Assembly (NCBI GenBank): GCA_965224025.1
Contig: OZ245033.1
Location: 1,440,001-1,504,000, forward strand
Direction: 5' to 3'
DNA length: 64,000 bases
Origin: Candidatus Multivorans sp.
Lineage (GTDB): Bacteria > Acidobacteriota > Thermoanaerobaculia > Multivoradales > Multivoraceae
The notes below the pieces were generated by a model. The model was not told where the DNA came from. It saw nothing but the letters and a program-made list of their open reading frames with translations, and searched no databases. Below are positions 1,467 to 52,997 of the stretch, in pieces. The stretch's first letter is position 1. Each line of letters opens with the position of its first letter. The position numbers and the translations under genes were made by a program.

Positions 1467-3314
1467 CTAATCCGCCGGAGGCTTCGCGGTTTCAGGCTCC
1501 GAGTCGCCGTCGTCGGCAGGGGTCGAGGACGCCGCCTCGCCCGGGTCGCCGACGGTGAGTGCTTCTCCATCCGTCGCCGGTGGCGCGGGCGGAACCGGCG
1601 CGGCGGGGGCCGTGCCGTAGTCGGAAGTGCCGAACCGGGTCATGAAGACCGCGCCGAGGCCGATGGTCCAGGCGACGTAGCAGATCAGGACTCCTGGTAT
1701 GCGGAACATGGCGCGGAAGAACCAGGGCAGACCCAGAAAGCCGAGCAGGTCGGCCACGAGTGCGAGCGCCTGGATCGCGAGGACGCCGAGCGCCAGAGCG
1801 CCGAAGCTGCCGGCCGCTACCCGGCCGGCGCCCTGGAAGCGCCGGCGGCACCAGTCGCCGGCCGCCGCCGCCGATCCCGCGTAGCCGAACACGAAGGCGG
1901 CCGCCAGACCGATGAACGCCGCCGGCCAGACGAGGACGGCGAAGGGAATGCCGATGATCGTCACCGCGAGCAGCAGGCTGACGATGACCAGGACGGGGAT
2001 GAAGAAGACCTCCACGCCCAGGCCGACCGCGAACATGATCCCGAGGTCGGACGCCGCCGCCGACCGCACCCGGCCGACCCCCTTCGGCGCCACCAGGAGG
2101 ACCAGGCCGCTAAGCGCAATCAGCAGAAAAGTGAAGATGATCGACTGGACGAACTCGAAGACCTTGCCCAGTCGGAAGAAGGGGGGCCGGTCGCCGACAC
2201 CTGGAAACCAGTCGCCGTCCCAACCGTCGAACCAGTCGCCGCCGAAGTTCCAGTCGAAGTCATCCCAGGCCACCTCGGATACCTCGCCGAGCACGGACGA
2301 TCCGTCTTCCCGCCGTACCCTGCCGCCGACCGTGACGATGTCGCCAAACACCTCCGCTTCGGGGCCGAGCTCCACGTCGCCGCCGATAGCGACCACTTCG
2401 CCGGTCACGCGGCCATTGATCTTCGCTTCGCCGCCGACCGAAACCGCGTCGCCGCGAACCTGACCGTCGACCTTGACGTCGCCGCCGATCGAGACGATGT
2501 CGTTGACCACTTCGTCCCGGCCGACGCGCACGGTGCTGCCGAAGGCGACCCTGTTGTCGAGGTCGACGACGAGTTCTCCCTCGATCCCGTTCAAGTCGCG
2601 CTCGAGATCCTCCAGCCGCTCGATGGCCCCCTCGATCGCATCCTGGGCCTGTTCGCCAGCTTCCTCGAGTGCTTCGTCAAGGGTCTCTCGCGCTTCCTCC
2701 AGAGCCGCGCTCGCTTCCTCCTGGGCCTCCTGGGCCTCTTGTGCTTCCTGAGGCTGGCCGAACGCCAAGCCGGTGCAGCACAGTCCGCCGACCAGCAACA
2801 GGGCGCCGGCTCGTGCTCCACGGATCCGCCGCCGGCCGCCCGGTCCCGAAGAAAGCCGGTGGAGAAGATAGACCGCGGTCAGGCTGAGCAGCGTCGAGAC
2901 GGCCACCACCGCGGTGACCTGTGGCGTGCGCAGAATCAAGTCGAGAGCCTCTCCGACCTGGACCGCGCCGCTCAGGAACGCGAGGCTCTCGGCGAGGACG
3001 CCGGCGGTCCAGGTCAGGATCCAGACCGCGCTGAAGAGCGCTGCTTCCAGGGCTCTCAGCATGGTCAGCCAGGTGGACGGGACGAGCAGCATCCCGCCTC
3101 CGAGCAGGAGCATCGCCGTTGCCGCCGTTGCGCCGGCTGACACGCGTGCCCACCGGGACATCGGGAACGGCAAGAGCTGCGGAGCTGGCGCCGGCGCTTC
3201 GATCGGCCGCTTCGCGGCCGCCACCTGCCGCATGACGCGACCGACGAACCCGTCCGATGGGGCGGGATCCTCTAGCGATTGGAAGAGAGTCCGGAGGTCG
3301 ATTCGGTTCCGCAT
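1467..3314 (-). CDS. Membrane protein: putative anti-sigma N-terminus fused to a bactofilin-like (polymer-forming cytoskeletal) beta-helix and multi-TM C-terminus
   Basis: 615 aa ORF directly downstream of an ECF sigma. N-terminal PAPSDGFVGRVM plus TM helices, repeats DIVSIGGDVKVDGQVRGDAVSVGGEAKING, hydrophobic C-terminus. Confidence 0.7.
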   Translation of the reverse strand: MRNRIDLRTLFQSLEDPAPSDGFVGRVMRQVAAAKRPIEAPAPAPQLLPFPMSRWARVSAGATAATAMLLLGGGMLLVPSTWLTMLRALEAALFSAVWILTWTAGVLAESLAFLSGAVQVGEALDLILRTPQVTAVVAVSTLLSLTAVYLLHRLSSGPGGRRRIRGARAGALLLVGGLCCTGLAFGQPQEAQEAQEAQEEASAALEEARETLDEALEEAGEQAQDAIEGAIERLEDLERDLNGIEGELVVDLDNRVAFGSTVRVGRDEVVNDIVSIGGDVKVDGQVRGDAVSVGGEAKINGRVTGEVVAIGGDVELGPEAEVFGDIVTVGGRVRREDGSSVLGEVSEVAWDDFDWNFGGDWFDGWDGDWFPGVGDRPPFFRLGKVFEFVQSIIFTFLLIALSGLVLLVAPKGVGRVRSAAASDLGIMFAVGLGVEVFFIPVLVIVSLLLAVTIIGIPFAVLVWPAAFIGLAAAFVFGYAGSAAAAGDWCRRRFQGAGRVAAGSFGALALGVLAIQALALVADLLGFLGLPWFFRAMFRIPGVLICYVAWTIGLGAVFMTRFGTSDYGTAPAAPVPPAPPATDGEALTVGDPGEAASSTPADDGDSEPETAKPPAD

Positions 3315-3384: not shown

Positions 3385-3411
3385 TACGATGCGAAGATCG
3401 CTGCGGTTTCA
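3385..3411 (-). promoter_or_regulatory. Candidate ECF (SigW-like) promoter TGAAAC-N17-CGTA
   Basis: The -35 TGAAAC overlaps the sigma gene stop codon. It resembles the B. subtilis SigW consensus TGAAAC-N16-CGTA and points into the anti-sigma gene. Confidence 0.5.
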
Positions 3412-3990
3412 AACCACGCCCTCCGCGCGCAGGCGCTGTTCGATCTCGCGGCGGGCCCGCCGCAGATTCGTCTTCACTGTTCCGAGCGGCATGCCGGTGA
3501 TCTCTGCGATGTCACGGTAGGGCAGCTCCTCCTTGAACCGCAGCAGCACGACCAGGCGGTACTCAGGCCGGAGGGCGGCCACCGTGGCTTCCAGCGCGGC
3601 TGCCAGCTCGTGCCTCTTGACCAGAGTATCGGCGGCCTCGGCCCGCTCATCGGGGGTGCGGTCGAGGATCGAGGACGCGTCGGTGTCGCTGCTCTCGATC
3701 GGCGTCGTGGGCAGCTTCTTTCGCCGCAGATGGTCGATCGCCGCGTTGCTCGCGATCTTGAAGAGCCAGCTCGCGAAGCGCCGCCGCGGGTCGTAGCGGG
3801 CCAGGGCCAGCCAGGCCTTGACGAAGACCTCCTGGGTGACGTCCTCGGCTATGCCGTGGTCCCGGACCATGCGCACGACCAAGCTGAAGACCGGGCGCTG
3901 ATAGCGCTCGACCAGGGTCTGGAAGGCCCGCTCCGACCCTTCGACAGCCGCCGCTATGAGCGCGACTTCATCTTTCTGTCGATGCGTCAA
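3409..3990 (-). CDS. ECF RNA polymerase sigma factor (SigW/RpoE-like)
   Basis: AEDVTQEVFVKAW, FASWLFKIASNAAIDHLRR (region 2); YRDIAEITGMPLGTVKTNLRRAR (region 4). Confidence 0.92.
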   Translation of the reverse strand: MTHRQKDEVALIAAAVEGSERAFQTLVERYQRPVFSLVVRMVRDHGIAEDVTQEVFVKAWLALARYDPRRRFASWLFKIASNAAIDHLRRKKLPTTPIESSDTDASSILDRTPDERAEAADTLVKRHELAAALEATVAALRPEYRLVVLLRFKEELPYRDIAEITGMPLGTVKTNLRRARREIEQRLRAEGVV

Positions 3991-3992
3991 GA

Positions 3993-4128
3993 TGTCATCC
4001 GTGCACTCGAGGACTCGCGCCCGGAGTGGTTCGCGGGTGGCGCCGAGCGCGCCACCCGGGTGTCATCCGTGCGCTCGAGGACTCGCGCCCGGAGTGGTTC
4101 GCGGGTGGCGCCGAGCGCGCCACCCGGG
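3993..4128. repeat. Two tandem copies of a 68-bp double-hairpin element (family A)
   Basis: 3993-4060 and 4061-4128 differ at one base. Homologous to 15379-15446 and 51997-52064. Confidence 0.92.
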
Positions 4129-4170
4129 TTGCAGTGTGGCACGCACGGTAACTGCCCGTATCATTGCCGC

Positions 4171-5199
4171 GTGAAGAGCGGGGAGGATCACACGGGTACC
4201 GGGGACTACGGAGAACTCGCGGCTGCGGTTCGGTCGGTGCGGATTGCAGGCCGGGTGACGCGGCGTCTACAGCAGTCGCTTCAGGGGTCCTTCCTGACCA
4301 AGGAGGACCGTTCGCCGGTGACGGTCGCTGACTACGCGGCGCAGGCTCTGGTCAGCCTCACGCTGCCTCGCGGGGAGGCCATCGTGGGCGAGGAGACCGC
4401 GACCGCTCTGGGAGGCGCCGGGGGGAGAGAAACCCTGGACAAGGTCGTGGCCGCGGTCCGGTCCGAGGTTCCCGATGTCACCGCCCGCGAGGTGCGAGCC
4501 GCGATCGACCGCTGCTCGGATCCCGGCGGTGCGAGCGGGAGGTTCTGGGTCCTCGATCCGATCGACGGCACGAAGGGATTCCTGCGCGGCGACCAGTATG
4601 CGATCGCCCTGGGTCTGATGGACGACGGCGAAGTCGTTGGCGGTGTGCTCGGTTGCCCGAACCTGCCTTCGCCCGCGGGGCGGGGTTGCCTGTTCGTCGC
4701 CGCCCGGGGTCGGGGCGCCTGCGAGCTGCCGTTCAACGAGGACAAGGGAACGCCGCAGCGTATCGGGGTTTCTGCGGTTGCCGCGTCGGGCGACGCCGCC
4801 TTCTGCGAGTCGGCCGAAGCGATGCACTCGGACCGCGATCGGCATGCCCGGATTGCTGTGCGGCTCGGGGTGACGGCCCCTGCCGTGCGCATGGACAGCC
4901 AATGCAAGTATGGGGCGATCGCACGCGGCGATGCCTCGATCTACCTCCGTTTGCCGTCGTCCAGGACCTATCGGGAGAAGATCTGGGACCACGCGGCTGG
5001 CTTCATCGTGGTGTCCGAAGCCGGCGGCGCCGTGACCGACGCCTACGGCCGGAGCCTCGACTTCAGCCTGGGGCGGACCCTGGATGAGAATCGAGGCGTC
5101 GTGGCGACCAACGGCCTCCTTCACGCTGTGGTTCTGGATGCGGCGGCCGCGGTGCTGCCACAGGACCCGGCAGTGTTGTCGCCGAACCCGGAAGGCTGA
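4171..5199 (+). CDS. 3'(2'),5'-bisphosphate nucleotidase, HAL2/CysQ inositol monophosphatase family
   Basis: [50 protein letters not shown] 4171 is preceded by TATCAT. Confidence 0.9.
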
Positions 5200-13596: not shown

Positions 13597-13705
13597 CGCC
13601 GCCAAGCGCCTCGCAGGCTCGGCCCCTGGCCCCAGCCCCCACCTCCCCAGCACTCCGCGCCTTCAGCCCCGCACTTCGTGCGGCGCCTACGGCGCGGACT
13701 GCTAG
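13597..13705 (+). repeat. ~105-bp structured element, family B copy 1
   Basis: Core TGGCCCCAGCCCCCACCTC shared with 39665-39769 and 43433-43538. Stem AGCACTCCGCGCC/GGCGCGGACTGCT. Confidence 0.85.
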
Positions 13706-15356: not shown

Positions 15357-15512
15357 CGCGGAAGAACGATCTGACCTGGGAACCCGTGTGGCGCGACCCG
15401 CGCCACACGCGAACCACTCCGTGCGCCCGTCATCGGGCGCACGGATGGCACGCGGGCATCCTGCCCGCATCCGGCGCGAAGCGCCGGCCTCCGGTCGTTC
15501 TGCCGCGCCTAG
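15353..15512. repeat. Nested palindromic cassette between convergent genes: outer inverted repeat > family C element > family A unit (15379-15446)
   Basis: CTAGCGCGGAAGAACGATC (15353-15371) pairs imperfectly with GGTCGTTCTGCCGCGCCTAG (15493-15512). Inner parts match 22769-22813 and the 68-bp unit. Confidence 0.85.
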
Positions 15513-22039: not shown

Positions 22040-22860
22040 CCGTTGCGTCTCCGGTCGCGTTCTCCCGGCGCGGACCCGTCCTGGACCTTGCCGTCCTCGA
22101 GTACGCCGGGCGGGAAGGGCTTGCCGATCCACTCGCTGGTCAGCCGCGGCGGCGGGCGCCCGTCGGTGACGTTGCCGGGCCTGAGCTGGATCAGTTCGCC
22201 GGTGAAGTGCCAGTTCTCGTAGTCTTCCTGGCCGTTCCAGACGCGCATCGAGGGGCCGGGCGTGGCGCTGTAGACGCCCAGAATCGGTCCGGCTGTCGGT
22301 CCTTCGCCCTCCTCTTCGTTCGGAGGCGGTACGGCGGTCAGTGCGCCTCCGGCGGCGCCGCCGGCCGCACCGGTATTGGTCGCTCCAGCCCTCCCGGTTC
22401 GGCGGTTTCTCTGCTGGCCGGCGTTGTTTGGAGCTCCCTGCATCAGCAGACCCCAGCGGCCCTCCTCGTCCATCGGGTTGGGCCACAACTGCCGGATGAC
22501 CCGCGGTTCGACCTCGATGAGTTCCTCGAGCGCCGTCGGCAGGCGCCCGTGTCGGACCCGGAACAGGCGGATCGCCTCGGCGTACTGGAGCCCACGGAAG
22601 ATCAGCTCCGCTTCCTTCTGCCTCTTCGCCCAACTGCTCCAGTACGGCAGCGCCGCCGCCACGGCGACGTTCATCACCGTGATCAGGACGGCGAGCACAA
22701 CGAGGTTGTAGCCGGCCTCGGAGGATCGGTCCGCGGGGCCAGGAGCTTGGGCCGCAGAGCACCCCGCCCCTGGGAACGCGGGCGTCTCGCCCGCATCCGG
22801 CCTCAAGCGCCGGTCTGTAGACGAGTGTTGGAGACGGGACACCAGGTCACCAGTCGGCAT
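22036..22860 (-). CDS. Minor pseudopilin-like protein (type II secretion/T4P), with a long leader containing a repeat element
   Basis: Cleavage-like G|YNLVVLAV without Glu5, TM helix, [24 protein letters not shown]. Confidence 0.78.
22769..22813 (+). repeat. REP-like element family C inside the pseudopilin leader
   Basis: CCTGGGAACGCGGGCGTCTCGCCCGCATCCGGCCTCAAGCGCCGG aligns with the copy at ~15375-15487 once the 68-bp insert is removed. Confidence 0.8.
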
Positions 22861-39593: not shown

Positions 39594-39664
39594 GCTAGTC
39601 CCCTCCCCTTCGCGCTGTCGCCTGGTGGCGGCGGTCACCATGAGCGCTCCGCCTGCCGCCGAGG

Positions 39665-39769
39665 CTATGAGCCTGCGCCGAAGAACGTAGCGGAGCGAGG
39701 GCTGAGGCGCAAGCTCATAGGGAGGTGGGGGCTGGGGCCAAACACGGAGCTGCGACGGGTTTGGCGGCG
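39665..39769 (-). repeat. Family B structured element copy 2
   Basis: On the minus strand: GCCAAAC/GTTTGGC stem, core GGCCCCAGCCCCCACCTC, stem CTATGAGCTTGCGCC/GGCGCAGGCTCATAG. Confidence 0.9.
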
Positions 39770-39786: not shown

Positions 39787-42700
39787 CTACGGCCGGGCCG
39801 AAACGGCAAGACCGGAAGCCGTCGCCCCTCGGAAGGGTGACTCCGGCCCCACGACCCGCGTCAGCCACTGCTCGCGGTAGGCGTCGATTTCGGACGTCCG
39901 GGGATAGCTCTCGCCGGGCGCGAATGGGTAGCCGGACATCGCCTGGAAGGGCAGGGGCAGGTTGCTGTCCGCCTTCCAGGTGTTGCGGTCGGCGTCCTTG
40001 TCCCAGCCGAAGCTCTCAAGGAAGACTGTGCGGGTGTAGCCGGGCTTCGGCGGCTCGAGGCCGCGGGCATCGAAGAGCAGCCGGATTTCGTCGCCCGGAC
40101 CGATCACGACCAGCCGGTCGTCGACGGCGGTCAGGAGTTCGCTTACGTCGCCGAAGCGCGTGTACCGGCCGGGGAAGGGCAGCCACGGGGACTCGGTGCT
40201 CGTGCGCTGGTAGTCGAACAGGTGCGGACCGTTGGGGGCGGGCCTGGTCAGCGTCGAGAACCCGCGGTAGGCCAGATCCGCCGTGGCCGCGTCGAGGCGG
40301 GCCTGTACGACGACGACGGAACCGTTGACCCCGCCGATGTCCGCGCTCCAGGCGACCCGGTCCCAGTGCAGCCAGCGGGTGGTGACGATCCGCAGCCTGG
40401 TGGCGCCCGCGGGCAGCGGCGGCGTGTCCACCACCATCGTCTTCGTCTTGCCGGGAGGGAAGCCCATCGGGTCGAGCAGCGTCCGCCAGCCCTTCGCGGT
40501 TTCGACCTCGAGCCGGGTAATGACCATCTGCAGATCGCCGTACTCCACCGCCTGGGCGATCGCGAGATTCAGGCTGGCGTCGGCGGGAAACACCCAGCCG
40601 TCCAGCCACAGCCGGATGGGCCTCCCTGGTGCTTCACCCAGGTCGAAGGTGAAGGCCCAGGGCTCGGCGGCGTGGCCCTGGTAGCGCGAGCGTTCGTAGC
40701 CGTCCGCGTAGACGTCGTCCCGGGCGCGGACCCGCTCGGTCACGTCGCGGCCGCGGCCGTCCGATGCGTGGACGATCGGACGGATTCCGGTGCTGGCCAC
40801 CACTTCGTCGGGCGGCCGGCCGATGTGCCCCCGGCCGGGCACGATCCTGAGGTTGCTGGCGACCGCCACGTCGTCGCGGTGATCGACCACCCAGAGGCGC
40901 GCGCGGTCGATGTAGGCGGCTTCCCACAGTTCCTCCGTGATCCGCAGGTCGTAGAAGCCGTCGCGTGGGGCGGCGCCGTCGACCCGGACCAGTTCGTCGG
41001 GGTCGTAGCCGTTCCAGACGCGGTCCGCGAGCGGCATACCCAGCGGTGCGCCCCACAGCAGGTCGGTGACGAAGGTGATCTTCTCGCCGTCCCAGGTGTA
41101 GAGGAAGGGGCAACTGCCCTTGAGCACCTGTTCCTCGACGATGGTCATGTTCTGGCTCGGGTCCAAACGGTTCTGCGGTACGCCGTTGGCCCACACGACA
41201 CGGATCAGATCGGCCTGCCGGCGGTTGCCGAGGCCGATGTGGGTGATTGGGCGCTCGACTTCAAAGTACTGGTACGCCCGGCCGGACTTGACCTCGATCG
41301 TCGTGCCGCGGCCGAAGACGTTGTTCTTCTGGTTGGCCACGTCGAGGCCGACCAGGCGAACGCGCAGCCAATTGTTCTCGGAGCCGTCCAGGTTCTCGAT
41401 CCGGTAGAGGCCGGTGGCGCCGGCCGCGACCAGGTCCTGGTCGCCGTCGTCGTCCAGGTCCTCGGCGCGGATAGCCGTGAACTGAGGGTTGCGTGGCAAA
41501 CCCATGACCCGGGCGAGGCGGAAGTCGAGCGCCTCCGGGCCGGAGTCCGAGGTCTGGGTGAGCACCCGCAGTTCGCCCCCCGCGACCAGGGCAAGATCGA
41601 GCCGCCCATCGTTGTCGGCGTCGAGTAGGGCGAGGTCAGTGGCGCCCTCCGGCAGTGCGACCGAACCGGGGGCCAGGGGGAAGGGAGCGACCGCCCCGTC
41701 TTCGTCGCGCTTCAGGATGAGCGTCGAATCGCCGGCGAGCAGGAACTCGGGACCCCCGTCGTGGTCGAGGTCGGCGGTTCGTACGACGCGCACGGGCGCT
41801 TCCGTGGTCAGGGCGCTCGCTGCCGGCTCGTCGGCGCCGACCAGGCTGATCAGCCTCCCGAGCAGACCGCGGCTGGGAGCGGGCGGGGTTCTCTCCGCGA
41901 ACTGGCCCTGGCGGAGATTGGCCAACCACAGGACACCTTCGTCGTGGGCGAGCAGCAGGTCGGTGTCGCCGTCGCGGTCGGCGTCGGTGGCCTGGAGGTG
42001 GTGGTAGGAGCGCGCCTCGACTTCGGGCAGCGCCTGCCGTCCCAGGGCCTCGAGCGGCCCTTCGAAGACCTCTTCGCCCGACACGTTCCGCAGCAGATCG
42101 GGCACGCCGTCGGCCTTGGCCACGGCGAGATCGAGGTCGCCGTCGCTGTCGAAATCGATCAGGTCGGCCGCGGTCACTGCCAGCGAACTCGCCAGGAACC
42201 GGTCGCTTGCGTCCCCGAACTGCGGCGTGTCGTCGACCTGCCAGACGGCCAGGTGATCGCCGATCGAGATCAGGTCGAGTTGCCGGTCGTTGTCGGCGTC
42301 GCCGACCAGGAGGATCTGGGCGTCGGTTTCGGGGGCGGCGCCCGGTGTGGCGTATCCGGTTGCCGCTTGCCGCAGAACCAGCCGGTTGGCTGAACTGTCC
42401 GCGCCGCCGCTTGACGCTGCGCGCGCGATGTCGGGCCGGTCGTCGCCGTCGAAGTCGGCGACTTCGAGTGCTCGGCCCGATGTCGGCGCGTTGTCGATCC
42501 GAGTAGCCCGGAAGCGGGCGGGATTCGCGGGGCCGAAGTCCTCGTTCGGTTCCTCGTCTTCGAAGTGTTCGACGGGAATACCTGGGATGTTCGTGTGGAT
42601 CTCGGCGAGGCTGCTGCGCCAGCCTGGAGTGTCGACCAGCACGTTCTTGACTCGTGGAGCGAGCCGTTGGGCAAGGTCGAGGTCGTTCGCCTCCAGCGCG

Positions 42701-43374
42701 TCGAGGACATCCCCGAGCACCCGTTCGGCGATTGGCCTGGCCTGCCAGATCAGTTCCCGCACACGCAGGTAGTCGTCGCTCGCTCGGCCGCGGTCGGTAT
42801 CCGCGAGCGCCTCCGCGGCGCTCAGGAGCAGGACGACCAGGTTGTCTGGCCGCAGGCGCCTCAACCGGTCCATCGCGTTCCGCCGGTCGGCTTCGGCTCC
42901 GCTCGTGATTTCTGCTTGGCGGAAGAGCGCGTACTGCGCCTCCGGGTCGTCGGGCGCGAGCCGCGCGGCGCGGCGGTAATCCGCGAGGGCATCCTCGTTG
43001 CTCCCAGCGGTCCACCACTGCAGGATGTCGGCGCGAATCAGCAGCAGATCAGTCCGGTTGCCGCCCAGGTCGAGGGCGTGATTGATCGCGGCCAGCGCCT
43101 CCTCGTGCTGGTCCTGCCGGAGCAAGGCTACGCTCAGGTTGGCGTGGCCGAGCGGTTCGTCGGGCGCTAGCTCGGTCAGTTCCAGGAAGGTGGCTTCGGC
43201 AGCGGTCGGCCGCTCGTTTTCGAGTTGGGCATAGCCGAGGTTTCGCAGGCGCACCATCTCCTCGGACGGTTGGGGCTCCTCGGACGGTTGGGGCTCCTCG
43301 GACGGTTGGGGGCACGCGGCGCCTGTGGAGGCTAGTGCGGCGAGGACGAGAGGGGCTGGAAGTTTGCGGAGCAT
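39787..43374 (-). CDS. TPR + FG-GAP repeat + ASPIC/UnbV lipoprotein
   Basis: Lipobox GAAC, TPRs, many DxDxDG repeats, NNWLRVRLVG, HIGLG, KGSCPFLYTWDG. Start is 43374 or 43389. Confidence 0.88.
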   Translation of the reverse strand: MLRKLPAPLVLAALASTGAACPQPSEEPQPSEEPQPSEEMVRLRNLGYAQLENERPTAAEATFLELTELAPDEPLGHANLSVALLRQDQHEEALAAINHALDLGGNRTDLLLIRADILQWWTAGSNEDALADYRRAARLAPDDPEAQYALFRQAEITSGAEADRRNAMDRLRRLRPDNLVVLLLSAAEALADTDRGRASDDYLRVRELIWQARPIAERVLGDVLDALEANDLDLAQRLAPRVKNVLVDTPGWRSSLAEIHTNIPGIPVEHFEDEEPNEDFGPANPARFRATRIDNAPTSGRALEVADFDGDDRPDIARAASSGGADSSANRLVLRQAATGYATPGAAPETDAQILLVGDADNDRQLDLISIGDHLAVWQVDDTPQFGDASDRFLASSLAVTAADLIDFDSDGDLDLAVAKADGVPDLLRNVSGEEVFEGPLEALGRQALPEVEARSYHHLQATDADRDGDTDLLLAHDEGVLWLANLRQGQFAERTPPAPSRGLLGRLISLVGADEPAASALTTEAPVRVVRTADLDHDGGPEFLLAGDSTLILKRDEDGAVAPFPLAPGSVALPEGATDLALLDADNDGRLDLALVAGGELRVLTQTSDSGPEALDFRLARVMGLPRNPQFTAIRAEDLDDDGDQDLVAAGATGLYRIENLDGSENNWLRVRLVGLDVANQKNNVFGRGTTIEVKSGRAYQYFEVERPITHIGLGNRRQADLIRVVWANGVPQNRLDPSQNMTIVEEQVLKGSCPFLYTWDGEKITFVTDLLWGAPLGMPLADRVWNGYDPDELVRVDGAAPRDGFYDLRITEELWEAAYIDRARLWVVDHRDDVAVASNLRIVPGRGHIGRPPDEVVASTGIRPIVHASDGRGRDVTERVRARDDVYADGYERSRYQGHAAEPWAFTFDLGEAPGRPIRLWLDGWVFPADASLNLAIAQAVEYGDLQMVITRLEVETAKGWRTLLDPMGFPPGKTKTMVVDTPPLPAGATRLRIVTTRWLHWDRVAWSADIGGVNGSVVVVQARLDAATADLAYRGFSTLTRPAPNGPHLFDYQRTSTESPWLPFPGRYTRFGDVSELLTAVDDRLVVIGPGDEIRLLFDARGLEPPKPGYTRTVFLESFGWDKDADRNTWKADSNLPLPFQAMSGYPFAPGESYPRTSEIDAYREQWLTRVVGPESPFRGATASGLAVSARP
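43258..43311. repeat. 18-bp coding tandem repeat x3 (PQPSEE)
   Basis: CTCCTCGGACGGTTGGGG repeated just after the lipobox. Confidence 0.9.
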
Positions 43375-43432: not shown

Positions 43433-43538
43433 CGCCGCCAAACCTGTCGCAGGCTCCATGTTTGGCCCCAGCCCCCACCTCACCAGAAGCTCGCGCCGCG
43501 AGCCTCGCTTTGCTGCGTTCCGCGGCGCGAGCTTCTAG
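43433..43538 (+). repeat. Family B structured element copy 3
   Basis: GCCAAAC/GTTTGGC stem, core motif, perfect 16-bp stem AGAAGCTCGCGCCGCG/CGCGGCGCGAGCTTCT. Confidence 0.9.
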
Positions 43539-43551
43539 AGTAGTCGCCACC

Positions 43552-46233
43552 GTGACCGCCAAGCGTCTCTTCCTGATCGACGGGTACTCCACGATCTTCC
43601 GCGCCTTCTACGCGATCCGGGGATTGTCGACGTCGTCCGGCGAGCCGACCAACGCGATCTACGGCTTCATCAACATGCTGCGCAAGCTGCTGCGGGAGGA
43701 AGAACCGCCGCTCCTCGGCATTGCGCTGGACGTGGGGCGCGCCACGGTGCGCACGGAGGCCTACGCCGAGTACAAGGCGAACCGGGCGCCGATGCCGGAG
43801 GACCTGAAGGCGCAGATGCCGGCGATCCGCCGGGCGATCGAGGCCTTCCGCATCCCGATCCTCGAACTCGAGCGCTACGAGGCGGACGACGTCCTCGGCA
43901 CTCTGGGCAACAGGGCGGAGGAAGCTGGCTACGACGTCACCATCGTCAGCGCCGACAAGGACCTGTTCCAACTCGTCAGCGACAGGGTGTCGCTGTTTCA
44001 CACGGGACGCGAGAAGACCTACGACCCCGCCCTGGTGGAGCAGGACTTCGGGGTGCCGCCCGGGCAGGTGGTCGAGGTCCTGGCGCTGGTCGGCGACAAG
44101 GTGGACAACGTGCCCGGCGTGCCGGGGATCGGCGCCAAGGGCGCGCAGACCCTGGTCAAGGAGTACGGGACGGTCGAGGCCCTGCTCGAAGCCGCGCCCG
44201 AACTCAAGCGCAAGGCGTACCGCGAAGGCTTGGCACGGCACGCGGACAAGGCCCTGTTGTCGAAGGAGCTGGTGACGATCCACACGGATCTCGATGTCCC
44301 CTTCGATCCCGAGGCACTCAAGATGGAGACCCCGGACTACGAGGCGCTGGCGGAACTGTGCCGCGAGTTCGAGTTCTGGAGCCTGCTCAAGGAGCTTGAG
44401 GGCGAGAGCGGCGGACCGGAGATCGAGCCGGCCGTCATCCTGGAGACCGTCGAGGCGTTCGGGGAGGCGGTACAGGGCCTGGGATCGCGGATCGCGGCCG
44501 GCGTCGTCTTCCGGCGCGGCGGCGAACCGGTCGGGTTGTCGTTTGCTCCGGTCGGGGACACGGCTGACGGGGACGGTGAGGGGACCGCGGGGATCGGCAG
44601 GGCCCACTATGCGGACTTCGGGCTCGCGGGGATGCGGGAGGCCGTGGCGGCCAGGCTGCGGGAATGGCTCGCCGACCCGGGCCTCGAGTTGATCGGGCAT
44701 GATCTGAAGGAGGTCGTCCGCCTCTGTCCACATGGGGACGGCCGGCCGGCGGTTGGCGCGCGCCTGGTCGACACGATGCTGATGGCCTACCTGGTCCACT
44801 CCGCCGTGCGCAGCTTCGGACTGGCGACCGTTGCCCTCGACCGCCTGTTCTACAAGGCGACGACGCCGGCGGACGCAGGTTTGGGTGAGGAGACGGCGGC
44901 CCTGGGCGAGGACACCGGGCTCGGTGTCTACGCGGCGGAGCAGGCGGTGCTTCCCGCCCTGATCCTCGAGGCGCTCGCCCCGCAGTGGCAGGAAACGCCG
45001 GGCGCGCGCGACGTCTACGACTCCATCGAGGCGCCCCTGATGCCGGTGCTGGCGGCGATGGAGGAGGAGGGCATCGAACTCGACTCCGGTGTGCTGTCCG
45101 AGATGTCGCGGCGCCTCGAACTGGACGCCGGCGACCTGGCGGAGGAGATCTTCGACATCGCCGGCGAACGGTTCAACATCCAGTCGCCGCCGCAGCTCGG
45201 CGTCGTCCTGTTCGAGAAGCTGGGCTATCCGGTGCTCGGCCGCACGCGCAAGACGAAGAAGTACTCGACCGGCGCCGAGGTCCTGGAGCAGCTCGCGCAG
45301 CGCGGCTTCGACCTGCCGGCCAGGGTGCTGCACTACCGGGAGCTGACCAAGCTCAAATCGACCTACGTCGACGCGCTGCCGCATCTGGTCGCGGCGGACG
45401 GCCGCCTGCACACCCGCTACCACCAGGCGGTGGCGGCGACCGGCCGGCTGTCCTCGCACGACCCGAACCTGCAGAACATCCCGATCCGTACCGAGATCGG
45501 GCGGAAGGTTCGCCGCGCCTTTCGCGCCCGGGACGGCTACCTGCTCCTGGTCGCCGACTACAGCCAGATCGAGCTGCGCGTGCTCGCGCATATCTCGGGC
45601 GACGAGACGCTGGTGGACATCTTCCAGCACGGCGGCGACATTCACCGCTCGACCGCTGCCACGGTGTTCGGCGTGGCGCCGGAACTGGTCACCGACGAGC
45701 AGCGGCGGGCCTCGAAGACGATCAACTTCGGGATCATCTACGGCATGAGCGCCTTCGGACTCGCGCGCGCCCTCGGCATCGCGCGCGGCGAGGCCCAGAA
45801 CTTCATCAACGCCTACTTCGAGCGGTTTCCCGGGGTTCGCACCTACACCGAGGAGACGTTGGCGAAGGCGGAGGAAGAGATGCGCGTCGAGACCCTCTAC
45901 GGCCGCGTGCGCTACCTGCCGGACATCAAGAGCCGCAACCGCGCGGTGCGCGAGAACACCCGCCGGATGGCCGTCAACGCTCGCATCCAGGGCACCGCCG
46001 CGGATCTCCTGAAGCTGGCCATGATCGCCGTCGATCGCCGGCTGCGGGCGGAACTCGAAGCCTCGCGGCTGCTCCTGACCGTCCACGACGAACTCGTGCT
46101 CGAAGCGCCCGCCGGCGCGATCTCCGAACTCACGGCTCTCGTCAGGGAAGGGATGGAAGGCGTCGCCGACCTGGCTGTGCCCCTGGTCGTCGATGTCGGC
46201 ACGGGTCCGGATTGGTACGAAGCGAAGGCCTGA
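43552..46233 (+). CDS. polA: DNA polymerase I
   Basis: LIDG..FRAFYA, YKANR, EADD, GRLSSHDPNLQNIP, DYSQIELR, NFGIIYG, TVHDEL. Confidence 0.97.
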   Translation: MTAKRLFLIDGYSTIFRAFYAIRGLSTSSGEPTNAIYGFINMLRKLLREEEPPLLGIALDVGRATVRTEAYAEYKANRAPMPEDLKAQMPAIRRAIEAFRIPILELERYEADDVLGTLGNRAEEAGYDVTIVSADKDLFQLVSDRVSLFHTGREKTYDPALVEQDFGVPPGQVVEVLALVGDKVDNVPGVPGIGAKGAQTLVKEYGTVEALLEAAPELKRKAYREGLARHADKALLSKELVTIHTDLDVPFDPEALKMETPDYEALAELCREFEFWSLLKELEGESGGPEIEPAVILETVEAFGEAVQGLGSRIAAGVVFRRGGEPVGLSFAPVGDTADGDGEGTAGIGRAHYADFGLAGMREAVAARLREWLADPGLELIGHDLKEVVRLCPHGDGRPAVGARLVDTMLMAYLVHSAVRSFGLATVALDRLFYKATTPADAGLGEETAALGEDTGLGVYAAEQAVLPALILEALAPQWQETPGARDVYDSIEAPLMPVLAAMEEEGIELDSGVLSEMSRRLELDAGDLAEEIFDIAGERFNIQSPPQLGVVLFEKLGYPVLGRTRKTKKYSTGAEVLEQLAQRGFDLPARVLHYRELTKLKSTYVDALPHLVAADGRLHTRYHQAVAATGRLSSHDPNLQNIPIRTEIGRKVRRAFRARDGYLLLVADYSQIELRVLAHISGDETLVDIFQHGGDIHRSTAATVFGVAPELVTDEQRRASKTINFGIIYGMSAFGLARALGIARGEAQNFINAYFERFPGVRTYTEETLAKAEEEMRVETLYGRVRYLPDIKSRNRAVRENTRRMAVNARIQGTAADLLKLAMIAVDRRLRAELEASRLLLTVHDELVLEAPAGAISELTALVREGMEGVADLAVPLVVDVGTGPDWYEAKA

Positions 46234-48850: not shown

Positions 48851-48888
48851 GAGACATCGTTGACATCAACTGGCGCGCTCCGTACGGT
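48851..48888 (+). promoter_or_regulatory. Sigma-70-type promoter TTGACA-N17-TACGGT upstream of ald, sharing 18/19 nt with the vapBC promoter
   Basis: GAGACATCGTTGACATCAA vs GAGACATCATTGACATCAA at 50195-50213. Confidence 0.65.
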
Positions 48889-48962
48889 TCGCCTGCTTCG
48901 ATGGCCTGCGGTGGAGGAACCCGCTCGCCTCCGAAGGCCGGACGATTGACCGGGCGAAGTGA
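48888..48962 (+). pseudogene. Remnant of a vapC 3' end
   Basis: Translates FACFDGLRWRNPLASEG..RAK*, matching the VapC C-terminus FARFDGLRLRNPLAADG..RA* at 50901-50972. Confidence 0.8.
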
Positions 48963-50194: not shown

Positions 50195-50241
50195 GAGACA
50201 TCATTGACATCAAACGAGACGGTCTCTATGATGCTGTGATG
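50195..50241 (+). promoter_or_regulatory. vapBC promoter TTGACA-N17-TATGAT with flanking CATCA/TGATG operator repeats; leaderless
   Basis: TTGACA 50204-50209, TATGAT 50227-50232, ATG 6 nt later. Two CATCA on the left are mirrored by two TGATG on the right. Confidence 0.8.
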
Positions 50242-50520
50242 CGGACGACGCTGACGATCGACGAAGACATCGCGGCCCGGATCGAAGAACGCCGCCGGCG
50301 GGATGGGCGGTCGCTCAAACAGATCGTCAACACGCTATTGCGCGAGGGGCTTCGCGGTGAGGGACGGCCACGGTCGAAGCCGTACCGCACGAGGCCGCAC
50401 GAACTCTGCCTCCGCCCCGGTTTCGACGGCGCGCGGCTCAACCAGCTCGTCGACGAGTTGGAGACCGATGAGCGTTTGGCGAGCGAGGCCCGGCTACGTT
50501 CGCGCCGTCCGCGTCGATGA
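50239..50520 (+). CDS. vapB: VapB-type RHH antitoxin
   Basis: MRTTLTIDED..SLKQIVNTLLREGL; ATGA-coupled to the PIN toxin. Confidence 0.88.
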   Translation: MRTTLTIDEDIAARIEERRRRDGRSLKQIVNTLLREGLRGEGRPRSKPYRTRPHELCLRPGFDGARLNQLVDELETDERLASEARLRSRRPRR

Positions 50521-50972
50521 TCGTGCCGGACGTCAACCTGCTGGTGTACTCCGTGGATGCGGCGAGTCCGTTCCACGTAGGGGCGCGTCGTTGGTGGGAT
50601 GGAGTGCTCTCCTCCGATTCGGAGGTCGGGCTGTGCTATCCGAGCATTCTCGGGTTCCTGCGAATGACGACGAATCGGCGCGTGTTCGAGTCGCCCCTGG
50701 CCATCGTGGATGGGCTGAACCGGGTTCAGACTTGGCTGGATCAGCCGAACACGGTGTTGCTGGCGCCGACGGACCGTCACTGGCCGGTCCTCTTCGGGCT
50801 CCTGGAGGCGGCGAATGTCGGCGCGAACCTGACGACCGACGCTCATATCGCCGCGTACGCGATCGAACATGCCGGCACTGTCTACTCGAACGACGGCGAC
50901 TTCGCCCGTTTCGACGGCCTGCGATTGAGGAACCCGTTGGCCGCCGACGGCTCGGCTGCCGGGCGGGCGTAG
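50517..50972 (+). CDS. vapC: VapC PIN-domain ribonuclease toxin
   Basis: MIVPDVNLLVY, NLTTDAHIAAYAIEH, SNDGDFARF. Confidence 0.92.
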   Translation: MIVPDVNLLVYSVDAASPFHVGARRWWDGVLSSDSEVGLCYPSILGFLRMTTNRRVFESPLAIVDGLNRVQTWLDQPNTVLLAPTDRHWPVLFGLLEAANVGANLTTDAHIAAYAIEHAGTVYSNDGDFARFDGLRLRNPLAADGSAAGRA

Positions 50973-50976
50973 CGAA

Positions 50977-51021: not shown

Positions 51022-52997
51022 CTACCGCCGCGGCCGCAGCACCATTCGCCGGTCACCCTCGCGCCGCGTCAGCCGCTGGCGGTCCAGGTGCTCCAGCAAC
51101 GGGATCGCCCATTTCCGGGTGAGGCCGAAGCGGTCCTTGAACTCGGTGACCGTGAACGTGTCCCAGCCGGTGGCGAGCAGGTCGCCCTGGAACTGCTCCA
51201 GGGCGCTGGCGGCCAGGATCAGGCCGTTCGGCAGCCGGGTCAGCCTGCCGCGCTCGACGAGGTAGCGGAGCACGCCGTCGAAGACCTGGGGTTTGGCGCC
51301 GATGCTGCGGCAGAGCTCCTCGGGGGACCCCGGGGTGAGTCCCTGCTTCTCGAATCCCTCGACGATGCTTTGCGCGAGCTTCGACTCGACGTCGGTCAGT
51401 TCGGCGGCGCGGCCGGGCAGGGTGACGAGTTCGCCTTCGACGGCTACCGCCTTGTCCGAACCGCCCTGACCGGCCCAGTTGAGGTAGGCGGGGGCGAGGT
51501 CGGCGGCATGCGTGCCGAGCAGCCGCCGCACCAGTTCGGCCTTGGGCATGCCGCGGGACAGGCGGTCGGCGGCGAAGTGCGCCTCGACCAGTCGGCGGGC
51601 GCTGCGGGAGACGTTGCGGACGGTGGCCGCGGAGACGAACCGTTCGGGTCCCGCCTCAAGCAGCAGGCCGTCCTGGGCGGCGCCGGTCAGCACGCTCGCG
51701 GCGTCGCCGCGGACGACCCCCAGGCGCACGCGAGTTCGGTGGCTGCAAGGCCCGCCTCCCGGCCGTCCGCCGCCCACTGCACGGCGGCCTCGCTGGCGCC
51801 CGCGGTCAGGGCGTCGATCGTCGTTCCGAGAGCCTTGCCGCGGCGGTGGCGCCAGGCCGGGTCCAGCACCTCGCCGCCGCCGAGTGTGGTTTGGGGCGAC
51901 GGCCGCCGGATCACGAAGCGGTCGCCGCGAACTGCCACCAGCGGTTCCTCCAGGCGGATCTCCGCCACCGCCTCCCCGCCCGGTTCCAGGCGTTCCACCC
52001 GTGCGCCCGATGACGGGCGCACGGACTGGTTCACGGGTGACGCGGATCGCGCCACCCGGGTTCCGGGCGCCAGCGGCCGGAGCTTGCCGACCCGCTGCGC
52101 GGCCATGACGTGCAGGCGGACGGAGCAGCTCCCCTCGATCGCCTCGGGCGCCGACGCCAGGAGGCGGCAGCGTACGAGCAGCGAAGTCGAGGCGCGGTAG
52201 ACGCCGGGTGTTGTCAGCTCGTGGCCTCGGGCGACGTCTTCCAGGCCGACGCCGACCAGTTGCAACGAGGTGCGTTCGCCGGCCTCCGCCCGTTCGCGGC
52301 CCTCGCCATGGACTTCGATGCCGCGCACCCGGGCGCGGCCGCCGCCGGGCAGGATGTCCAACTCGTCGCCGGTCGTGACGGTTCCCCTGGCCAGCGTGCC
52401 GGTGACCAGTACGCCGAGCCCCTTCAGGTGGAAGGCGCGGTCGATCGGCAGGCGGGCGGGTAGCCCGCTGTGGCGGTCGATCGGCGCCGCCTCGCCGGCG
52501 AGCCGGACCAGGGTCTCGCGAAGCTGGTCCAGCCCGGCGCCGGTCTCGGACGAGACGGGCAGGATGGGCGCTTCGGCGAACGGAGTGTCGGCGAGCGTTT
52601 CCTCGAGTTCCAACTGCGCCAGCTCCAGCAGATCGGGAGGCACCAGGTCCGTCTTCGAGAGCACCGCGACACCGGCCGGAATCCGGAGCAGCGAGCAGAT
52701 CGCGAGGTGTTCCAGGGTCTGGGGCATGACGCCTTCGTCGGCCGCCACGACCAGGACCATCATCTGGATTCCACCCAGTCCCGCGAGTGCGTTACGCACG
52801 AACCGTTCGTGTCCGGGCACGTCGACGAAGCCGATCTGCCAGCCGTTCTCGATCATCGACGCGAAGCCGAGATCGATGGTGATGCCGCGCCGTTTCTCTT
52901 CCTCCCAACGGTCGCAGTCGACCCCGGTCAGGGCCTGGACGAGGCGGGTCTTGCCGTGGTCGACGTGGCCGGCGGTGCCGACGACGAACCGCTTCAC
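51022..52997 (-). CDS. selB: Selenocysteine-specific elongation factor, with a frameshift near 51730 and an in-frame 23-aa repeat insertion
   Basis: GTAGHVDHGKT, EEKRRGITIDLGF, DVPGHERF, GVMPQTLEH. Winged-helix FKDRFGLTRKWAIPLLEHLD lies in the second frame. Confidence 0.93.
51996..52064. repeat. Family A element inserted in-frame in selB
   Basis: Aligns end to end with 15379-15446. Encodes GTRVARSASPVNQSVRPSSGARV and is flanked by GGAAC on both sides on the coding strand. Confidence 0.9.

Follow-up and report, generated by a model that had tools for sequence, protein, structure and literature searches.

Repetitive extragenic palindromes (REPs) with GTAG or CGTC tags are mostly intergenic, with some found near genes for REP-associated tyrosine transposases (RAYTs) and a minority lying wholly inside open reading frames (ORFs) (Di Nocera et al. 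2013, PMC3733652; this paper and those named below are cited from excerpts). In the excerpted account, REP dimers within genes encode 20–30 amino acids and many of the hosts are replication or repair genes, including that of the UvrD/REP helicase. The CGTC repeats, which are taken there to include the Rickettsia palindromic elements (RPEs) RPE-4 and RPE-6, are described as being without transposase gene association (PMC3733652). [quoted passage not shown] Here we describe a palindromic unit inserted in frame in selB, the gene of the selenocysteine-specific elongation factor, of Candidatus Multivorans sp. (Acidobacteriota, class Thermoanaerobaculia). The analysed stretch, referred to as the window, comprises 64,000 nt (positions 1,440,001–1,504,000 of contig OZ245033.1, assembly GCA_965224025.1; G000:C1:1440001-1504000 in our numbering) of a 5.14-Mb genome with 67.6% G+C in 3 contigs. 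The selB segment is very probably a copy of a lineage-specific, non-autonomous, REP-type mobile repeat, whose 68–69-nt unit is made up of two unlike stem-loops with a GTTC(C)-like tag behind each.

Insertion in selB

The selB gene occupies 51022–52997 on the minus strand, with the GTPase domain and domains II–III encoded in ORF 51687–52997 and the winged helices in ORF 51022–51777. Pfam assigned GTP_EFTU, GTP_EFTU_D2 and Beta-barrel_SelB to the former and SelB-wing_2 and SelB-wing_3 to the latter; the EF-Tu-type GTPase, domain II, the SelB beta-barrel and the C-terminal winged helices expected of a SelB are all present. The solved structures nearest to the product were those of SelB (4zu9 and 5lzb, E about 1e-59), and the insert region itself remained unaligned in this search.

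The double-hairpin unit lies at 51992–52064 on the plus strand (the element's own orientation, antisense to selB), with GTTCC at 51992–51996 and 52060–52064, hairpin 1 at about 51999–52024 and hairpin 2 at about 52033–52058. On the selB strand the insert corresponds to 23 codons, TRVARSASPVNQSVRPSSGARVE, in the context ...LAPG-TRVARSASPVNQSVRPSSGARVE-RLEPGG, which is the in-frame peptide that a first-pass annotation, made from the letters of the window, had reported. That annotation had also pointed to a 68-bp period in intergenic copies as against 69 bp in the coding insert, and our measurements agree: the two pentamers bracketing the selB copy, which is of the common 70-nt form with a 68-nt period, are 68 nt apart, the tandem copies repeat at 68 nt, and the net gain relative to empty alleles is 69 nt. 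Compared with the empty site of the closest congener, G016 (CACC-GGAAC-GCCTGG), the filled allele has one extra C before the first GGAAC (CCC versus CC), so that the 68-nt unit plus this base makes 69 nt and the frame is restored.

The clean gap of about 23 residues that had been anticipated in SelB homologues was found: the 23 residues are missing, with an exact gap, from all nine close homologues, and a 60-sequence alignment spanning phyla shows the segment in none of the 59 homologues. The insertion site is a short turn within the motif L-D-R-x-E-L-x-P-G-E. DNA alignment placed 69 extra bases in the window copy, and the five congeners with contiguous selB flanks, the closest being G016 with 92% identity, all lack the insert (5/5). 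Contigs of X3 and X4, two runs from other studies, jump from 51996 to 52071, leaving out 74 nt but having 5 letters in their place, and are thus 69 nt shorter. According to these alignments, the unit entered selB after the split from the closest congeners. Contigs of runs X1 and X2 (52016–52112) extend from the repeat interior to 48 nt into selB with 0 mismatches, bridging the right junction; both runs belong to one sample, which may be the source sample, and are not independent of the assembly data. The left junction is crossed by a contig of a second strain.

An AlphaFold model of SelB based on the 60 sequences had a mean predicted local distance difference test score (pLDDT) of 85.4 and a predicted template modelling score (pTM) of 0.85. 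Residues 313–320 and 324–332 scored below 50 and were modelled as coil between strands 300–308 and 342–354 of domain III, whose own blocks scored about 95. The 23 extra residues are predicted to be disordered and to form a loop that connects two beta-strands of domain III, in agreement with the surface loop of domain III suggested earlier, on the strength of a model and not of a solved structure. A preceding model from 10 sequences (pLDDT 58) was too poor and was replaced by the 60-sequence model.

Separately, the empty selB allele of a close relative (L002:3900-3975) reads CCCGGAACCCTTGAA; its left flank is that of the filled G000 allele, with one base fewer after GGAAC. This allele differs from that of G016 in three codons and may be the footprint of an earlier insertion and loss.

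Structure and distribution of the repeat unit

Repeat finding in the window recovered the four copies listed in the first-pass annotation (3993–4060, 4061–4128, 15379–15446 in reverse, and the one in selB). The direct repeat family D4 comprised 3993–4060, 4061–4128 and 51993–52060 (99% and 79% to the reference), while the inverted pairs I2–I4 linked 15379–15453 with 51990–52064 over 75 nt at 89% complementarity and with the two tandem copies at 83–84%. A profile made from the four window copies, iterated twice with nhmmer and run over the 5.14-Mb genome, gave the further copies that had been foreseen: 170 at E<0.01, among which 163 had E<=1e-5 and 147 had E<1e-10; 143 of the copies were near full length. 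The most frequent match length was 70 nt (67 copies), followed by 71 (36), 69 (22) and 68 nt (11).

The consensus unit reads, in order, TGCCATCC, hairpin 1 (11 bp, 4-nt loop), ACTGGTTCG, hairpin 2 (11 bp, 3-nt loop) and GGTT(CC). The two stems are unlike in sequence and each folds on its own; the ends of the unit are direct, not inverted, and inspection of the consensus showed no terminal inverted repeats. Among 109 copies, the 5' pentamer was GTGCC in 50, GTTCC in 24 and CTGCC in 16, with GT(G/T)CC in 74/109, and the 3' pentamer was GTTCC in 54, GTTCG in 21 and GTTCT in 18, with GTTCN in 98/109. A loose resemblance to CGTC/TGTC-type REPs, suggested initially, was not borne out, as the family end is TGCCATCC with a GTkCC/GTTCC tag and TGTC occurs only in the two tandem copies.

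Folded as single-stranded DNA, the selB copy formed two hairpins with -31.1 kcal/mol (z = -5.4), and 0 of 200 shuffled sequences folded as well. The 104 distinct full-length copies had 93% and 95% of their cells paired in the two stems, compared with about 30–54% in a slid-partner control. Double compensatory changes were found in 11 of the 14 pairs of hairpin 1 and in 6 of the 11 pairs of hairpin 2. Compensatory cells numbered 54 against 8.9±2.7 in column shuffles for hairpin 1 and 37 against 5.6±2.2 for hairpin 2, neither value being reached in 500 shuffles; these counts are inflated by subfamily kinship among the copies. The stems of the unit are kept by compensatory changes.

The unit was detected in 16 of 18 same-genus genomes and in none of the 12 genomes that represent other families of its order. 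An exact-pattern scan of a species collection returned, among the matches listed, only metagenome-assembled genomes (MAGs) labelled Ca. Multivorans, Thermoanaerobaculia or other Acidobacteriota. Among the genomes searched, the unit is confined to one genus. An Rfam scan of the window at gathering thresholds gave 0 matches.

The flanks of the unit are mosaic: one group of copies is preceded by the REP hairpin ccggatGCGGGCaggatGCCCGCg, and in another the unit sits inside a GCCGGCC/GGCCGGC stem. Single REP hairpins with a GTTCC or GTGCC tag number roughly 130–160 in the genome and stand directly before 25 units, the reversed-genome control for the REP pattern (276 against 508) being uninformative. 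Within the window, the two head-to-tail copies span 3993–4130 on the plus strand, with a 68-nt period and a common junction pentamer, in the divergent intergenic region between an extracytoplasmic function (ECF) sigma factor gene (3409–3990, minus) and an inositol-monophosphatase-family gene (about 4222–5199, plus; Pfam match from about 4222). The intergenic copy at 15379–15450 on the minus strand is the same over 75 nt as two other genome copies, and a REP hairpin abuts its 5' end. This adjoining element (15447–15490, minus; family D18) consists of a REP-type hairpin, GCGGGC-loop-GCCCGC, with a GT(G/T)CC tag, accompanied by another small hairpin. At 22773–22816 on the minus strand lies a related REP that stands alone, with GTTCC at its end on that strand. 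In the copy at G000:C1:2820988-2821057, found in the N-terminal extension of an acyl-CoA dehydrogenase, the loop of hairpin 1 is TCAT instead of ATGA with the stem kept, as if the hairpin had been inverted.

Other host genes

Genes were called with a simple, crude codon-usage caller, giving 3,924 calls over about 85% of the genome. By these calls, 111 of the 163 copies were intergenic, 22 lay across gene ends and 30 were inside calls. Copies at least 150 nt from both gene ends were regarded as deep genic; 17 copies qualified before pruning, and the tandem pair (intergenic by Pfam) and a copy in a Rieske protein gene (no coding signal upstream) were dropped. The remaining 14, or about 9% of the 163, are in frame in selB and 13 further genes.

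As identified by Pfam, the unit lies inside a domain match in the prolyl oligopeptidase (S9 peptidase; insert residues 387–410 within the propeller match 82–503), Amidase_3 (445–468 within 306–566), UvrD/PcrA (91–114 within 18–307) and an alpha/beta hydrolase (192–214 within 51–350), and in the hydantoinase it splits Hydant_A_N (108–131). It falls in the C-terminal domain of GyrA (730–753), in a linker of a pyrroloquinoline quinone (PQQ) dehydrogenase-cytochrome c (618–640) and between the G domain and the C-terminal domain of YchF (225–248). The other hosts, besides SelB, are an FG-GAP/ASPIC protein, a PD-(D/E)XK nuclease, a Reg_prop protein and, as ambiguous cases, HisD and the acyl-CoA dehydrogenase with the insert in its N-terminal extension. 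The inserted peptides use at least three reading frames, e.g., EPGxRxxAPPANQSERPSSGARME (the selB frame) and NPGGALxRHPRTSPxARHRAxGWN.

Of the 15 candidate hosts, made up of the 14 deep genic ones and the Rieske protein gene, 7 were compared with orthologues in congeners. Besides selB (net 69 nt), the insert was missing from ychF in 20/20 congeners (net 69 nt) and from uvrD in 19/20 (net 69 nt versus G016), the exception being G018, where the insert sits at the identical site and is of the same hairpin variant. It was missing from gyrA in 4/5 (net 90 nt versus G016), with G001 carrying a unit at the same site that is 3 nt shorter and in frame. For the S9 peptidase, all three congeners with a match lacked it (net 69 nt each) and 2/5 genomes gave no match; for the amidase, the two informative genomes, G016 and G008, lacked it (net 57 and 72 nt), the other three giving partial matches only. 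The hydantoinase gene was empty in 5/5 congeners, with net differences of 69 (G016), 63 (G012), 75 (G008) and 69 nt (G002); a hydantoinase insert common to G001 had been considered and was rejected, since the alignment shows no element there. All net size differences at the checked hosts were multiples of 3. The earlier proposal that an RPE-like palindromic family adds loops to proteins of this lineage, here to a translation factor, is supported by the 13 further in-frame hosts and the empty sites in congeners.

Transposase association and mode of movement

Matches to Y1 transposases (Pfam Y1_Tnp) occurred in 14 of 20 congeners. In G016, gene L122 2320–2964 (214 aa, HVHVL motif) matched NCBIfam REP_Tyr_transpos with 79.7 bits (E 2e-22). 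Upstream of this RAYT-like gene are one 70-nt unit and six REPs, and downstream of it eight REPs run the other way, all with GTTCC-CAGG at the end. The REP of these arrays is the one that, in the genome analysed here, occurs more than 130 times with a GTTCC or GTGCC tag and stands before 25 units. In G012, one unit is located about 300 nt upstream of the Y1 gene. The expectation of a RAYT/TnpA or GIY-YIG gene flanked by the unit therefore held in part: a RAYT-like gene of this kind exists in congeners, but the genome analysed here has no Y1 gene, and its one GIY-YIG match, a 603-aa ORF, was not seen flanked by units. The G016 REP arrays themselves (L122:2060-2290 and 2968-3190) contain long repetitive ORFs in several frames that could pass for proteins.

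We propose a REP-associated tyrosine (Y1/HUH) transposase as the enzyme that moves, or once moved, the unit in the form of single-stranded DNA; it would recognise the hairpin and tag and insert the unit next to a GTTCC-like target. Movement of this kind would account for head-to-tail copies at a 68-nt period and for a pentamer at either junction. In G016, the unfilled selB and hydantoinase sites have the exact pentamer at the insertion point. The insertion sequence IS608 inserts next to a short specific target without duplicating it and excises seamlessly; behaviour of this type would agree with a tag at either junction, with copies arranged head to tail and with the uneven occurrence of the unit from species to species. 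That a RAYT-like enzyme with a GTTCC tag moves the unit is plausible from the sequences, with the chances about evenly balanced.

Several observations weigh against this picture. The genome with the most copies has no Y1 transposase, as PF01797 gave 0 matches and tblastn with the congener proteins reached a best E of 0.14; mobilisation would then lie in the past, act in trans from something unassembled, or be due to another enzyme. The RAYT-like proteins score just below the NCBIfam cut-off (79.5 and 79.7 versus 80), and a unit was nearby at 2 of 7 Y1 loci examined, with none within the fetched stretch at the other five. The GTTCC target was exact in two of five interpretable empty sites, uvrD having GTTGG and the S9 peptidase and ychF no match. 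Lagging-strand targeting would predict a replichore bias, so the lack of one (60:47 and 29:26, in a test weakened by a lopsided skew curve) speaks against a Y1 mechanism. The genic assignments depend on our own crude gene calls, with hisD, the acyl-CoA dehydrogenase and the Rieske protein as ambiguous hosts, and eight of the candidate hosts lie outside the orthologue comparison. The gyrA insert is common to the distant G001 (85% nucleotide identity) and the uvrD insert to G018 (87%), while G016, the closest congener, is without both; one simple insertion history does not explain this sharing, which points to excision, recurrent insertion or allele exchange.

The cumulative GC skew of G000:C1 is lowest at 4.99 Mb and highest at 3.47 Mb. 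The replichores are thus very unequal, whether by rearrangement, misassembly or weak skew.

The unit could instead be a classical MITE moved by a DDE transposase, in which case the terminal GTTCC would be a 5-bp target-site duplication and not a tag. In selB and the hydantoinase gene, empty sites indeed have a single pentamer and filled sites two, and the lack of a Y1 transposase in the genome would be accounted for. However, the unit ends are not inverted copies of each other in the consensus, and the same pentamer stands at the ends of most copies, whereas duplications of random targets should differ from copy to copy. The tag is shared by the REP arrays on both sides of the RAYT-like gene. 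An autonomous parent was also sought between copies less than 5 kb apart, and none of the 11 ORFs there is a transposase; they are ordinary, metabolic genes (acyl-CoA dehydrogenase, ferritin, major facilitator superfamily transporter, luciferase-like protein, sulfatase, aminotransferase, ECF sigma factor and others). We consider a MITE of this type improbable.

A further idea, likewise improbable, is that the units are reversible protein indels, with seamless excision and reinsertion in those congeners that keep a RAYT-like enzyme. If so, loops in GyrA, UvrD, SelB and further proteins would come and go between species, which would explain the gyrA and uvrD inserts in distant congeners but not in the nearest. 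Loss of the enzyme in the genome analysed here would have frozen an unusually large copy load, genic copies included, and the L002 selB allele would be an excision footprint.

Constraints on genic copies

Several features of the genic copies are signs that selection filters them. Deep genic copies make up only 14 of 163, although the calls cover about 85% of the genome. The predicted enrichment of coding copies for lengths divisible by 3 was recovered, as the 71-nt form (69-nt period) accounted for 7/11 genic but 19/75 intergenic full-length copies (Fisher one-sided p = 0.016). Of the deep genic copies, 12/14 have the host gene antisense to the unit, a bias with p = 0.04 against the 3:2 ratio expected from open frames, one sense frame being closed by a TGA, and with p = 0.009 against pentamer usage. 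Intergenic copies were over-represented in convergent (32/110) and divergent spacers (25/110), compared with about 15% each among all spacers.

Tolerance through an insert of 3n length in a disordered turn is well supported. Most insertions into genes would have been lost, and the survivors would be those with a net length of 3n and no stop codon that were placed in surface turns or linkers. The insert would accordingly be a tolerated passenger and not an adaptation. The opposite, that the peptide or the mRNA hairpin was recruited for a function in SelB, GyrA, UvrD and others, could draw on the gyrA and uvrD inserts, which stay in frame in species 85–87% identical at the DNA level, on stems that remain paired inside genes, and on the 12-to-2 orientation of genic copies. 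We regard such recruitment as very unlikely: each insert is dispensed with in most congeners, the segment is predicted to be disordered, the peptides come from at least three different frames, and the host proteins are functionally unrelated.

State of the selB gene

One base is missing from the window near 51727/51728, which breaks selB into two ORFs, a split that the first-pass annotation had missed. The window sequence reads CTCGCG-TGCGCC where L001 and L002 read CTCGCGTTGCGCC. One more base is present at 51727–51729 in every contig covering the site in all four runs compared (X1–X4), among them 292-nt contigs from X1 and X2, the two runs that contain the strain of the window, which otherwise match the window without a difference. 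Because all compared contigs of the four runs have the extra base, the frameshift is, as far as these sequences tell, a consensus error of the assembly, and selB is intact. The assembly may hold other gene-breaking consensus indels.

The genome also has a tRNA-Sec gene, an open selA (452 aa) and selD. A search for selenoprotein formate dehydrogenase (TIGR01553) gave 0 matches over the cut-off and none with an internal stop; with no selenoprotein gene found, a need for SelB would follow from the machinery alone. If selB were dead in this host, the kept frame would be a one-in-three accident with no bearing on tolerance. The 1-nt deletion relative to L001 and L002 and the missing selenoprotein gene fit such decay, which is nonetheless highly improbable given the extra base in the compared contigs, the otherwise identical ones of X1 and X2 among them, the intact tRNA-Sec, selA and selD, a coding signal on both sides of the insert, and the same in-frame pattern in 13 other genes, including gyrA, uvrD and ychF. 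That the repeat was misplaced in selB by the assembly can be set aside with hardly any reservation, for although the assembly does contain at least one consensus error, 270 nt from the insert, the X1 and X2 contigs pass from the repeat into selB without a mismatch, the left junction is crossed by a second strain's contig, and the frame is open, which is rare for a random misjoin.

Other features of the window

Just downstream of selB, at 50236–50972, a pair of short plus-strand ORFs (94 aa and 151 aa) overlap and, by their translations, resemble an antitoxin and PIN toxin. The 75-nt stretch at 50901–50975 resembles 48888–48962 (73%, D13). A second, unrelated repeat family of about 75–97 nt (D11, I1, I16) is present at 13597–13672, 39654–39750 and 43433–43549, with copies adjoining the large genes 39787–43257 and 43552–46233. 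Periodic repeats of about 150–170 nt (D1, D6) were observed at 122–520 and 41417–42301 inside two large minus-strand genes, and their translation suggests calcium-binding or FG-GAP-like protein repeats.

Comparison with described systems

The unit corresponds to a REP in being a short palindrome of high copy number (163 copies) and mostly extragenic location (111 intergenic). Like the intragenic REPs of PMC3733652, as excerpted, it is built of short stem-loops with an end tag, and its 23-aa inserts occur in uvrD, gyrA and a PD-(D/E)XK nuclease gene, among others. It differs from them in its tag, which is GT(G/T)CC at the 5' end and GTTC(C) at the 3' end and thus neither GTAG nor CGTC, in consisting of two unlike hairpins in direct order with a fixed 68–69-nt period, and in its phylum, Acidobacteriota. 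The section on intragenic REPs in that paper, its Additional file 3 aside, does not name selB, ychF or gyrA as hosts. The RAYT-like gene of G016, placed between opposite REP arrays, recalls the REP-RAYT arrangement shown in the same source.

With RPEs, as portrayed in the excerpts used here, the unit shares the character of palindromic selfish DNA lying in frame in unrelated housekeeping genes, with a peptide that fits the fold and, in the present case, an insert absent from orthologues. Descriptions of RPEs set it apart by its length of 70 nt against about 100–150 bp, its lineage and its RAYT-like partner in congeners, and its genic share of about 9% (14/163) contrasts with nearly half in some RPE families. 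The single-copy Y1 gene flanked by inverted REP arrays in G016 and the hundreds of dispersed hairpins parallel what the cited part of Bertels and Rainey (2011, PMC3116915) describes for the REPIN-RAYT system. Measured against the definition of a REPIN in the passage used from PMC3337134, the unit is not an inverted doublet, since its two hairpins are different and in direct orientation; moreover, no transposase gene is present in the genome where copies are most numerous, either through loss or because there never was one. As to MITEs, no terminal inverted repeats were seen, and the 5-nt direct repeat at the junctions could be either a duplication or a tag.

A Y1/HUH enzyme that recognises subterminal hairpins, the likeness to IS200/IS605 elements (portion of PMC6006769 consulted), would suit the hairpins of the unit. 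The differences are that no lagging-strand bias was found here, that the target was exact in 2/5 empty sites, and that movement is deduced from sequence.

The literature searched on Thermoanaerobaculia repeats and on multivorans contained no description of the unit family, nor of selB, gyrA or ychF as hosts. In-frame REPs and RPEs have been described before; within this literature, what is new is the present family, its phylum and the hosts selB, gyrA and ychF. For the annotation of MAGs, the unit calls for care, because it inflates or splits gene calls and the assembly has at least one consensus indel in selB. The filled and empty alleles in sister species form natural pairs of SelB, GyrA, UvrD and YchF variants that have or lack a 23-residue loop and could serve for work on insertion tolerance and REP-type movement. 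In-frame selfish DNA in essential genes is thereby extended from Rickettsia and a few Proteobacteria and Verrucomicrobia to an uncultured lineage of Acidobacteriota.

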